Below the pieces are notes generated by a model. That model was not told the origin of the DNA and did no database searches. It saw only the letters and a list, made by a program, of their open reading frames with translations. DNA of 64,000 bases, taken from the NCBI GenBank assembly GCA_964016885.1, contig OZ024742.1, forward strand, positions 364,870,001-364,934,000, read 5' to 3'. Origin of the DNA: Eledone cirrhosa (taxonomy: Eukaryota). The position numbers and the translations under genes are program-made. Shown one piece after another: positions 22,763 through 64,000 of the stretch; the stretch's first letter is position 1, and the number at the start of each line of letters is the position of its first letter.

Positions 22763-22907
22763 TTCCGCCGTTTTAGTTGAGATGAAGTCGGCCTATGAAT
22801 CATGATGAAAGTATTTTGGGTGTCAGAGCGCGTATTTTCAATTCCGTGAAATCACTATATATATATATATATATATATATATATATATATATATATATAT
22901 ATATATA

Positions 22908-23467
22908 AATCACCAGATAAAATATATACCATTTCCTCTTAAATAATCTCTCTTAGGTTGAGATACAATTTTGGCTGTATTGTGCTGCGCTTTCTAGCAA
23001 AAGGCCACCAGCCGTAAGCAACTAATCACATTCTTTCTAACCTGAGCGCTGCTACGTCACGATTCTTAGACATTTTTAAATGTATTCTTGGCGCAATCAC
23101 TTTGGAAAATTTATTGTCTAAATTTGAGCTAACTTCCTGAAGAGTCCGGTGCTCTCGATGTCCAATGCTATCGGATATCTTAAAATGCGGATGAAACCAT
23201 GGTAAAGGTCACTAAATATGTTCACTTTTCTCCTAGTTTATGTTACACCTAATTCTGTTTAGTTGACTGTATATCTGAGCGATTTATACACGCTGGCGAA
23301 ATATTCGATAAATACTCCGTCGCAACCGACGCGAAGGCCTGCATTCGGTTATTTGTCGGAGATTTCTTCATAGAAGCCTTTATTCTTATAGCTTGGTCTA
23401 ATCGATTTTTTATATGGTTAATTATGCTAATTGGGAGAGGAAATGGTATATATTTTATCTGGTGATT
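22908..23467 (+). mobile_element. Non-coding cassette with ~32-bp terminal inverted repeats and an internal HHR motif (Penelope pLTR-like relic)
   Basis: AATCACCAGATAAAATATATACCATTTCCTCT at ~22908 is the reverse complement of AGAGGAAATGGTATATATTTTATCTGGTGATT at ~23436; lies between (TA)n tracts. Confidence 0.6.
23132..23209 (+). ncRNA. Type I hammerhead ribozyme motif (near-canonical)
   Basis: CTGAAGA(23137)-GTCCG...CGGAT-GAAA-CCATGG(palindromic stem III)-TA; stem I ACTT/AGGT with a mismatch next to the core; extra hairpin GATGTCC/GGATATC in stem II. Confidence 0.65.
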
Positions 23468-23559
23468 CTATAGACATGTTTTATGATATATGGCTCTGAT
23501 TATTTAATTTATTAACTCTTCATTGTGCCACAAAGTGACCGGTTGCAAAACACACACAC

Positions 23560-24121
23560 ATATATATATATGTAAACCCTTATATATATATATATATATA
23601 TATATATATATATATATATATATATATATATAAATATATATATATAAATATATATATATATATATATATATATATATATAAATATATATATATATATATA
23701 TATATATATATATATATATATATATATAAATATATATATAAATATATATATATATAAATATATATAAATATATATATATATATATATATATATATATATA
23801 TATATATATATATATATATATAAATATATATATAAATATATATATATATAAATATATATAAATATATATATACATATATATATATATATATATATATACA
23901 TATATATACATATATATATATATATATATATATATATATACATATATATACATATACATATATATATATATATATATATATATATATATATATACATATA
24001 TATACATATATATACATATATATATATATATATATATATATATATATATATATATATATATATATATATATATATATATATATATATATATATATATATA
24101 TATATATATATATATATATAC
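23560..24121. repeat. Long (TA)n microsatellite
   Basis: Direct; the YIYI ORFs here are artefacts. Confidence 0.97.
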
Positions 24122-24836
24122 ATATTTCAATGGCCCATCTCCATCATCCAATTATGATACAAGACAAGACGATGTCATCAGGTAATTTCGACAGAATTGC
24201 ATAAAAGAATTACTTTGACATTTAGGAATAGATACATACACACACACACATATATATGTACATATATATATATACATATATATATATATATATATATATA
24301 TATATATATATATATATATGGAATTCCTATGAGATTTAAAAGATTGTACCTACCTGCTGTTCGTCGCAGAATAGTGGCAGTATATGATTCATTGTTATTT
24401 GGTTCTGTAGTGATACCTGCAACGAGTACCAGAGGAAGTACTTAGAAATTGATACATATATTCACACATATACATACATTAACACATACATACATACACA
24501 CACACACACACACACACACATATATATATATATATATATACATATATAGTTTTACATAGAGAGGTTGAAAACCGTTGGAAGATAATGTATAAATTAAAAG
24601 AATTTGAAAATTAACGAAGAGAAAAATAATGTAAACTTAAGGTTTCTCCTCCTTCCTCATTATACTCCTCCCTCTCCACTTTTTACTCTCATCTCCTCCT
24701 CTTTTTCATCCTTCCGCCCCCCTCAAAATAAAATATTTTTCCCAATATCACACATCAATCTAAAACTACTTTTCATATGTTGATTTAAAACTGCACTATC
24801 CACAAGTGTTTTTTTAACCTTCATATCATATCTTCC

Positions 24837-24907
24837 TGTTTTATCTGATGAAAACACAAATATTATTGCATGATGATATTTGTTTTTGAAATGCGCATAA
24901 TAAAATA
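24837..24907 (+). ncRNA. Type I hammerhead ribozyme motif (intact)
   Basis: Stem I TGTTTTAT/ATAAAATA; CTGATGA(24845); long stem II AAAC-ACAAATATTAT/ATGATATTTGT-TTTT; GAAA; palindromic TGCGCA; cleavage triplet AUA. Confidence 0.85.
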
Positions 24908-61120: not shown

Positions 61121-61164
61121 ATATATATAAATATATAATATATATAAATATATATATATATATA

Positions 61165-61470
61165 TATGATATTAAATAAATGGAAACTATATTTATAAAA
61201 CCATATTTATTTCGTTATATATATTTCAGGGATATCATATTAACAATATGTTATGCCATCTTCAGACAAAATACAATATAAACAGTCTTATAAATAAATA
61301 GATACGACATACCTTTCAATCACCTTGCATTTGTGAGGTTGATATAAGACTGTTTATATTGTATTTTGTCTGAAGATGGCATAACATATTGTTAATATGA
61401 TATCCCTGAAATATATATAACGAAATAAATATGGTTTTATAAATATAGTTTCCATTTATTTAATATCATA
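61165..61470. mobile_element. Foldback cassette (128-bp arms, 50-nt spacer) with an HHR on each arm
   Basis: 61165-61292 is the reverse complement of 61343-61470. At 61362-61427: TATTTTGT-CTGAAGA-T-GG..CATATT-gtt-AATATG..CC-T-GAAA-TATATA-TA-ACGAAATA. Confidence 0.85.
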
Positions 61471-61884
61471 AATATACTCCAAATACTTGTTGAGTGCTTT
61501 TATATCAGTTATAAATATTTACTCGTTGTTAACCCAACAATTTAAATATAACTTTCCATGTATATATGTATATATATATATATATATATATATATATATA
61601 TAAATATATATATATATATAAATATATATATATATATATATATATATAAATATATATCTATATATATAAATATATATATATATATATATATATATATATA
61701 TATATAAATATATATCTATATATATAAATATATATATAAATATATATATATATATATATATATATATATATATATATATATATATATATATATAAATACA
61801 TATCTATATATATAAATATATATATAAATATATATATATATATATATATATATATATATATATATATATATATATATATATATA

Positions 61885-62468
61885 TGCATGCCACTGTACG
61901 TCTGTATACATATATGTATGTACGTATACATGCATACTTACATTTAAGTAAGTGCCATACTAAGAGTGAGAAATGAAATTTCGTTTTCATTTTGTTTCAA
62001 TTTAACGTTTTCGGTATGCCTGACCGATTTAACTCACTCAATATGCAAATTAGGCTGCTCAGCCGTTAATTTTCATAAGGAAAGTATATACTTTCGAACG
62101 TTCAACTATCTGGCAGATGGGTAAACGGTGCTGATGATAGCTAAAAAGCTTGAAACTAGTACATCGTTCCTGTGTCAGTGTTGAACAAAAAGGTGACGTG
62201 GTTGCCTTAACACCGTATGGCATAAATTCAGGCTGTTCAGTTTGTTTACAAACGAACAAAGCGACGTTATAACAAGCGCCGCTAAACTGATACGTGCATA
62301 TATGTATGTGTACCTGTATGCATATGTATATATATATGTATATATATATATGTGCATGCTACTGTACGTCTGTATACATATATGTATGTACGTATACATG
62401 CATACTTACATTTAAGTAAGTGCCATACTAAGAGTGAGAAATGAAATTTCGTTTTCATTTTGTTTCAA
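61885..62468 (+). mobile_element. Retrozyme-like repeat, subfamily B (~1.4 units)
   Basis: Homologous to the 422-bp unit and near-identical to the reverse complement of 42560-43318; flanked by (TA)n. Confidence 0.88.
62124..62168 (+). ncRNA. Minimal type I hammerhead ribozyme (subfamily B)
   Basis: AACGGTG-CTGATGA-T-AGCT-aaaa-AGCT-T-GAAA-CTAG-TA-CATCGTT. Confidence 0.88.
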
Positions 62469-64000
62469 TATATATATATATATATATATATATAGTGGTT
62501 TGTGTGTGTGTGTATATATATATATTGGATTGTGTATATATATATATATATATATATATATATATATATATATATATATATATATATATATATAACTAAA
62601 ATATCTACACAATCCACTAAATATATATTACACATGTCTGTATCGTTTCTGACTCCATATAAGTGTGTGTGGTAGATGGGGAAGATTAATGAAACGTATG
62701 ACGTTATTCGCTAGAAATGTAGTGAAGTTTGGTTGTAAACATAGATAACTAGATTCTAGTACAAATGAATAGAATCTACACAACTGCCTTTCCAATTCCA
62801 CGTCTGTTAATAAAACGTGATGGGAAAATCTAACAAGCTCAGGAATTGGAATTGCAGAATATAAAGCTTTCTAATCTACGACGAAATATATTTAGGTTTT
62901 CAGATAATGAGGTATTAAAATCTACGAGTGTATGTGGTCCGTCTTTTAAACATTTTTTTATAGAAAGCATTTAACACTTTTCTTTGCGCAGTAACTACAT
63001 CTTTTCTATCTAAAGGGATGGTTTTTATCAGCCAATGAAACCTGATAGTTATCTATCTAAGTAGATAAAAAAAAAACATTGTTTTACCCATATATAGAGG
63101 TATTGATGTACAGTACAGCATTTCGCTTTGTAATCACATGGGTCCTTATTTCACATCCACTGCACCACATATTAAGCAAAGGTCATCTATATTCTCGGGT
63201 TGATACATTATTGGTGAATGAAATTTGTTGGATGGAAACTGTAGAAACTCTTATATATATATATATATATATATATATATATATATATATATATATATAT
63301 ATATATATATAAGAGCTTCTACAGTTTACATCCACTACCTATATATGTGTTCACCCCTCTCATATATCCAATTGTATATATATATATATATATATATAGA
63401 TAGATAGATAGATATAGATAGATATATATATATTGGTAAACGGAATAGAAAACGCTGACAAATATTTCACAATGAAAACTAGTTTAATTAGGAATAAGTG
63501 AGAATTAGTAATATTCAGTTTAGTATTCAGTTAGTATTCAGTTTTGGTTTTAAGTTTTACCGGTTGCGCATTTCTAATGCTTTTCAAAAATAATTTTGAG
63601 ATAGAGCGTCCGTGATATATATATATATATATATATATATATATATATATATATATATATATATATATATATATAAACGTTTGTAGTTGTAAGGCCAAGA
63701 CAATGCAGGTATGGATATAGAATATAAATGCAAAAACAAAAGATATTGTTGACAATTATTCTTTTACCTTAAATTTATTTAAATATCGTTAATTTTCGAG
63801 ATAATATCTCTTTTTCGGAGGCAAGTAAAGTGGTTAATCCAGTATTCTAATTAGCTTGCCAAGTCATGCTGACAGGAAATGGTATAGAGATTCCATTCTA
63901 TCTCTAATGTCAAAGAGTGAAGGTTAGGTAGATAAAGAGTAGTCTCCCTTTAAAAGGGATTTTGTACATGTTTGTTTAAGTGTGTTGGAGAATACGTGAA

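Follow-up and report, generated by a model that had tools for sequence, protein, structure and literature searches.

Hammerhead motifs of the window

The window analyzed here comprises 64,000 nucleotides of the Eledone cirrhosa genome (assembly GCA_964016885.1, 3.0 Gb; contig OZ024742.1, positions 364,870,001 to 364,934,000 of the forward strand), and from 22.8 to 64 kb it is a mosaic of short repeat islands separated by (TA)n runs. Here we describe the hammerhead ribozyme (HHR) motifs of these islands, the 3' ends of Penelope-like elements (PLEs) and the three non-coding tandem units (R1 to R3) that carry them, and the way in which they may have been inserted. By their cores and stems the motifs are type I hammerheads, and their self-cleavage is a predicted activity. 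Positions are window coordinates on the plus strand unless marked (-).

The initial annotation had listed about 30 HHR sites (31 positions), and we found that 29 of these are HHR motifs or damaged copies. A strict type I descriptor, which demands the core boxes (CUGANGA/GAAA/UH), a C3-G8 or U3-A8 pair and stems I-III, was passed by 21 sites: 23137 (despite a mismatch at the first stem-I pair), 24845, 42966 (-), 44775 (-), 44974, the U3-A8 cores 45335 (-) and 45414, 12 copies in tandem arrays, 56629 and 62131. Two sites, 61265 (-) and 61370, pass only in a relaxed scan that tolerates a 2-bp stem II. Six are damaged: 26157, 34026 (-), 34068 and 40270 keep intact core boxes, have one broken or mismatched stem and fail the relaxed scan, yet still belong to HHR families, while 26091 (-) (C3A) and 55308 (U4G) have a single core defect each. 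The pair at 58.15k (-) and 58888 did not hold up, since neither the copies in the window nor a long copy, scanned in its 3' region, contain a core with zero or one defect. Two motifs lie beyond the listed sites, namely core boxes at 36691 (-) (feature 36640-36700), which fail the relaxed scan (control stretches L035 and L047 hold a similar motif that the descriptor accepts), and a damaged U3-A8 HHR at 63587 (-) (feature 63545-63600).

We compared the density of strict matches with a shuffled background, as the initial annotation had suggested. In 20 block-wise dinucleotide shuffles of 22.8-64 kb there were 2 matches in total (0.1 per shuffle) against 21 in the real sequence. Control sequence was drawn as 48 stretches of 10 kb (480 kb) at round coordinates on many contigs, hand-picked rather than random; the first 40 contain 45 real matches against 2 in shuffles. 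Single-sequence folds gave the expected stems at most sites with a stability that is not unusual (z +0.3 to -2.6), as expected for motifs of the minimal, dimer type. Across the listed family members stem II varies while its pairing is retained, as judged by eye rather than by a formal covariation count. An Rfam search of the whole window returned no hammerhead among the best 150 of 232 rows, which were dominated by miRNA matches to TA repeats; the motif at 44974 matched Rfam HH9 below threshold (E 5.5e-5, 28.5 bits, gathering score 52). The unremarkable stability of single folds would suit an origin of the motifs by chance or by misassembly in AT-rich DNA, but the shuffles, the absence of any reversed-pattern match in seven genome searches and the presence of R1 words in sequence runs of three organisms make this explanation extremely improbable.

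Coding and non-coding families

Our data indicate that seven of the 11 HHR families are 5'-truncated, often inverted 3' ends of protein-coding PLEs, as judged from their sequences. Long copies with a reverse transcriptase (RT) and GIY-YIG open reading frame (ORF) upstream of the HHR-bearing end were found for these seven families, and also for a family at 58 kb. The initial annotation was right to link the motifs to Penelope-like elements. Motifs place four of the seven as Hydra-type (24845, 61-kb, 55308 and 44974) and three as Neptune/Nematis-type (45-kb, 40270 and 56629), the latter as one joint group.

Hydra-type 3' ends lie at 24541-25033 (+) (HHR 24845; left boundary approximate), 44955-45155 (+) (canonical-like HHR 44974), 55290-55491 (+) (HHR 55308 of a U3-A8 family, with the U4G defect and a 5-bp stem III) and 61168-61556, where a head-to-head pair carries HHRs 61265 (-) and 61370 (+) and a tail on the right arm. 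The corresponding long copies contain an 821-amino-acid (aa) ORF with RT and endonuclease (EN) approximately 1.07 kb upstream of the HHR (24845 family, L265), a 583-aa ORF (61-kb family, L131) and a 710-aa ORF (55308 family, L337), and in the 44974 family L340 has a short inverted arm, a broken Hydra ORF, a long 3' untranslated region and the HHR. A 528-bp repeat of the 44974 family was considered as a unit and rejected, as it is a local composite duplication. Pattern matches of the 55308 family include U3-A8 and C3-A8 cores, and at 25712-25910 (a palindrome) and 46130-46218 insertions of this family are truncated inside the HHR, with only the 3' half left. The Hydra-type proteins share DKT, a CxCX5C linker and CxxC and CxH around E and N, and they have no CCHH. 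DKT is readable in two of five Hydra-type rows, the other three beginning further downstream, and the RWK position reads RWT and RWR in the only two rows that reach that far.

Head-to-head pairs of the eleventh family, which is assigned neither to the seven coding families nor to the three non-coding ones and has CC-N3-GG in stem III, lie at 25935-26252 (damaged HHRs 26091 (-) and 26157 (+); the left arm alone is tailed) and 33940-34218 (cores 34026 (-) and 34068 (+)). For this 26/34-kb subfamily none of nine wide loci has a linked ORF, and loci extended by 1.5 kb on either side gave one weak match in 41 stretches. Its sister subfamilies carry Hydra ORFs (L268 and L269); in L268 and L270 a Hydra ORF is followed downstream by two related HHRs of the same orientation, approximately 1.5-1.7 kb from each other. 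The head-to-head pair at 58051-59223 represents a young Hydra-type family with a 540-aa ORF (L282), approximately 2,400 candidates and top 40 matches that are 99-100% identical. An HHR was sought in this family by a core scan and none was found; the family may have lost its HHR or may use another processing signal. At 56899-57050 a small palindromic island is followed by a GCTC..GAGC tail stem and is probably a very short end of one more Hydra-type family.

The Neptune/Nematis-type families comprise two truncated ends that form a 290-bp palindrome plus a 65-bp tail at 45230-45584 (HHRs 45335 (-) and 45414 (+)), a decayed element at 37048-40492 (+) with an RT fragment at 38570-39556 (RVT_1 E 0.005, below the cut-off) and HHR 40270, whose stem I is damaged, and a truncated element at 55529-56817 (+) with an inverted, tailed arm, a GIY-YIG ORF at 55565-56371 (E 0.0016, below the cut-off) and HHR 56629. 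A long copy of the 45-kb family (L183) encodes 770 aa, the sole protein with Pfam RVT_1 and GIY-YIG above the cut-off, and another (L195) has a tandem arrangement. In L195 a 332-aa frame at 5010-6008 (-) separates the upstream HHR from the RT frame; it is either an ORF of its own or a long extension of the N terminus. Long copies of the 40270 and 56629 families are L338 and L339, fragments of both ORFs occur in the window, and the two RTs are 63% identical. These families share with Neptune/Nematis PLEs GLKF, DKG, a CX2-5CxxC linker, GIY-YIG, a microsatellite bias, an inverted truncated copy and a tail.

The remaining units, R1 (422 bp, with longer subfamilies), R2 (approximately 657 bp) and R3 (approximately 507 bp), look like non-coding tandem units of the retrozyme kind with one type I HHR each. 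R1 alone accounts for 14 of the 29 motifs, and the three units together for 16. Arrays of R1 lie at 49248-52796 (+) (8.4 tandem copies, eight HHRs, a tail at the end) and 59388-61120 (+) (4.2 units, four HHRs), their units being 94-99% identical, and R1 subfamily copies at 42420-43271 (-) (HHR 42966; boundaries approximate) and 61886-62467 (+) (HHR 62131). An R2 monomer at 22908-23560 (+) has HHR core 23137, stem III CCAUGG, a short inverted arm on the left and a tail on the right; R2 occurs in tandem at a spacing of 648-657. A partial R3 unit at 44519-44958 (-) has a short inverted arm and a monomer-type HHR (44775) whose stem I is 10 bp long, and a tandem unit was seen in L306. PLE protein matches upstream were found in one of 60 stretches for R1 (an adjacent other family), none of 23 for R2 and none of six for R3. 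Contigs of run X6 carry R1 variants inside the HHR at N7, in loop II and on both sides of one stem-I pair; in this run (88 million letters in contigs of unrecorded kind, which carry no information on ends, strand or level) word depth reaches approximately 5,500 over the R1 HHR (49370-49680). No RNA run is listed among those that contain R1 words. At L030:8630-9683 lies a further retrozyme-like family of 311-bp tandem units, with the first copy inverted and stem III CGCG.

Abundance across the genome

The controls contain 54 strict matches, which extrapolates to 337,000 motifs genome-wide (bootstrap 218,000-474,000), or approximately one per 9 kb. Seven family patterns together gave 158,356 exact genome matches, a count that includes both arms and all array units and in which pairing was unchecked singly. 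One pattern that spans the 24845 and 61-kb families accounts for 83,516, followed by R1 (26,801), 56629 (17,318), a further pattern (13,295), the 45-kb family (10,850), the 55308 family (5,844) and R2 (732). That the families have nothing in common beyond the core, as the initial annotation held, was not upheld: a single pattern spans two of them, the RTs of two others are 63% identical, and six share a stem in their tails (below). Its link to (TA)n was confirmed in the controls, where (TA)6 or longer lies within 300 bp downstream of 46 of 53 matches with room for it, compared with 38% of positions picked at random from these stretches.

The window exceeds the mean approximately 4.5-fold by motifs and approximately 2.5-fold by insertions (P 0.03), and the excess comes mostly from the two arrays. 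We considered and rejected a local hot spot: compared with sums of four control stretches, 21 raw matches are an extreme value (P 5e-5), but counted as insertions the excess is modest, 9 where 3.6 are expected. The 30 kb to the right hold one match, and the 30 kb to the left are satellite with none.

The HHR cluster is therefore a genome-wide phenomenon in which the same families recur, not the local community that had been proposed. That community was thought to consist mainly of non-autonomous ribozyme elements, and this part survives for the 422-, 507- and 657-bp units. The three non-coding families with their large share of motifs would fit it, as would the 26/34-kb subfamily, with its lack of linked ORFs and a high copy diversity of 0.14; short ends could also be copied in trans. 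Against it stand the coding long copies of seven families, the wide range of HHR spacing in inverted pairs (80 to 4,200 bp) and the high density across the genome, and we regard this explanation as largely refuted and improbable.

Minimal HHRs in the pseudo-long terminal repeats (pLTRs) of PLEs were described by Cervera and De la Pena (2014; PMC4209133) at approximately 2,000-9,000 per genome. In the text of that paper the motifs share with ours the type I topology, a palindromic stem III, an unpaired base opening stem II and the U3-A8 variant, and also many families per genome, opposite-strand pairs 100-700 bp apart and mostly single truncated ends. The difference is in number, with at least 158,356 exact pattern matches here, counted by another method. 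The count here (at least 158,356; approximately 340,000 by sampling) is also above the 120,000 cited for the axolotl, whose genome is much larger; the methods are different. Craig et al. (2021; PMC8557442) describe in their main text a small Hydra clade that occurs in molluscs among others, carries HHRs and inserts into (TA)n. Our Hydra-type families share with it a C-terminal EN, DKT, CxCX5C, the absence of CCHH, HHRs and (TA)n targets; in contrast, 83,516 matches fall to a single Hydra-type HHR pattern here, and a recognizable HHR is missing from one young family. The supplements of that paper list molluscan Hydra families and may include those found here.

Insertion anatomy and a proposed two-cDNA model

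We found that each HHR pair on opposite strands consists of two truncated ends of an element, fused head-to-head, and that exactly one of the two arms carries a tail in 99 of 102 inverted pairs from three families. Tails were counted in three ORF-linked or ORF-related families and in R1 and R2, partly by eye and not by one uniform automated count. The 45-kb family has one tail in 51 of 51 pairs (30, plus 21 further by eye; one duplicate and L172/L173 were left out), the 61-kb family in 22 of 24 (by probe) and the 34-kb family in 26 of 27 (by eye); for the latter two the query contained part of the tail, so that zero-tail pairs are under-sampled. The palindrome of the 45-kb family was considered as a separate, non-autonomous element built around an invariant centre, and this was rejected: the one centre shared by 40 of 40 scored matches reflects query bias, and an unbiased pattern gave variable spacing and an autonomous parent. 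The palindrome is a junction hot spot that arises from a 2-nt microhomology in the parent element. Of the 30 copies joined here, 16 have the longer arm on the tailed side and 13 on the tail-less side, and one is symmetric. A lone cDNA that folds back cannot create a tail that it lacks or an arm longer than itself, and therefore two cDNAs are needed.

The two arms of one copy are closer to each other than arms of different copies in six of six families, and rare variants common to both arms number 24, 17, 37, 13, 14 and 75, against 2.4, 1.2, 2.4, 0.6, 2.5 and 0 with shuffled partners. An origin of the 34-kb arms from two different subfamilies was rejected, as same-copy arms are usually closer than arms of different copies. 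The inserted arms retain the whole HHR, which is consistent with uncut RNA as the template. A RCTC..GAGY stem, whose outer pair occurs as both A-U and G-C, opens the tail in the 24845, 61-kb, 26/34-kb, 44974, R2 and R3 families (by eye, not by a statistical test); the stem is disrupted in the copies of 55308 and R2 that the window contains, and R1 and the 45-kb family do not have it.

Among the matches listed, inverted insertions of R1 end at unit position approximately 114 on one arm and approximately 170 on the other (108 and 154-158 in a subfamily) in six of seven readable cases, and those of R2 at 581-584 and 616-646 in five of five. In some R1 insertions, such as L275, both arms contain tandem units. 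These dispersed (TA)n copies with head-to-head arms and two fixed ends have the PLE insertion pattern, which speaks against R1-R3 being satellites derived from pLTRs that spread by DNA-level duplication and not by RNA. The high identity within arrays would suit such satellites, and local tandem amplification is raised in the text of Li et al. (2026; bioRxiv 10.64898/2026.07.22.740005), but we consider this origin very improbable. As genomic evidence, the signature suggests instead that retrozymes are moved by Penelope enzymes.

The interpretation we favor, to which we assign a probability of roughly 0.7, is that hammerheads lie in the 3' ends of several PLE families and in three non-coding units, and that all of these were probably inserted into (TA)n by Penelope enzymes, which would cut each target strand and start two cDNAs on the same source RNA. 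The PLE protein, a dimer if it follows the prediction for PAc, would nick both strands of a TA repeat. One cDNA would begin at an outer RT start and include the tail, and the other would begin at an inner start and exclude it. Both would copy RNA of one source locus, probably a single molecule, that retains an uncut HHR. The cDNAs would usually stop early and join through microhomology, giving a short palindrome with two HHRs. Under the same interpretation, R1, R2 and probably R3 would be non-LTR retrozymes mobilized in trans by these enzymes, R2 and R3 probably by a Hydra-type enzyme. Each insertion would leave TA runs on both sides, such that repeated insertion would stack families side by side. 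Going by the literature, the HHR would trim read-through RNA and, in R1-R3, would make monomers and circles.

This model would extend in vitro findings on Poseidon PAc (Frangieh et al. 2024; PMC11167929), where both strands of AT-rich DNA are nicked and extended, two RT starts bound the tail and uncut RNA is the main template; the text of that study does not assign one start to each arm of an inverted insertion. Eight of nine Xenopus retrozyme dimers were uncleaved in Li et al. (2026). Known non-LTR retrozymes (Cervera and de la Pena 2020, PMC7229834; Li et al. 2026) are tandem repeats of a non-coding unit, a few hundred bp long with one type I HHR, and occur alongside PLEs, and R1-R3 share all of these properties. 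As these sources present it, the link of known retrozymes to PLEs consists of co-occurrence and pLTR phylogeny, whereas R1 and R2 insertions bear the head-to-head, one-tail signature itself.

The same elements could also have gained their inverted arm by self-priming on an antisense template, as proposed in PMC3846280, by fold-back or by later gene conversion. Junctions often lie at small palindromes or microhomologies, as in that paper, and in long-spaced pairs of the 45-kb family (n=8) the arms share three rare variants, not above shuffles (mean 1.1, maximum 9). Self-priming or conversion alone, however, does not yield one tail in nearly all pairs, nor the longer tail-less arm in 13 of 30, and we judge this route unlikely.

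Several observations, besides the weak sharing in long-spaced pairs, weigh against the two-cDNA interpretation or parts of it. Two tails occur in pairs L067 and L085 and none, by probe, in L100, and a two-tail pair with unrelated DNA between its arms (L172/L173) was set aside. Rare variants on one arm far outnumber those on both (e.g., 193 against 24), and gene conversion between close arms could account for part of the symmetry. The Hydra-type proteins matched no Pfam family, one of them gave no match in a PDB search, and they align weakly to a Neptune-type protein (23%, E 2e-4), so that the clade assignments rest on motifs rather than on a tree. The 58-kb family spreads without a recognizable HHR. 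An autonomous partner for R1-R3 was not identified, R1 does not have the shared tail stem, and the count of inverted one-tail insertions covers R1 and R2 among the three units.

Already in print are pLTR HHRs, the U3-A8 variant, opposite-strand pairs, tails "often at one end", Hydra targeting of (TA)n, and retrozymes with a proposed PLE partner. A literature search made without most subscription papers, Repbase, Dfam and supplements revealed no earlier account of a larger number of HHRs, of PLE twin priming, of a Hydra expansion on this scale or of a PLE signature on retrozyme insertions. A broader claim, that this is the most hammerhead-dense animal genome so far (approximately one per 9 kb, approximately 3x10^5) through a massive expansion of the Hydra clade, that the two arms of an inverted insertion derive from two RT starts on a single RNA, and that retrozymes are inserted by the same enzymes, some of them recognized through a shared tail hairpin, has in our estimate slightly less than an even chance of being correct as a whole. 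Tens of thousands of young copies make inverted, one-tailed PLE insertion testable by direct count, and the signature on R1 and R2 does the same for the question of which enzyme moves animal retrozymes. The tail stem that R2 and R3 have in common with Hydra-type families points to candidate enzyme-substrate pairs.

Other repeats accompany these elements. Positions 1-22761 are a G-skewed 20-bp satellite that extends at least 30 kb leftward and at least 52 kb overall; three 10-kb stretches of satellite left of the window contain no strict HHR match and no (TA)8 run. Two fragments of long interspersed nuclear elements (LINEs) with apurinic/apyrimidinic (AP) endonuclease and RT are among the window repeats, related decayed copies in opposite orientation at 29092-32023 (+) and 46312-49208 (-), and a core-like match at 48255 (-) within the second is probably due to chance. 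A LINE-like ORF at 26340-27418, a 3' fragment, terminates in three C2H2 zinc fingers, and a minisatellite with a 24-bp unit in approximately 16 copies lies at 33315-33733.

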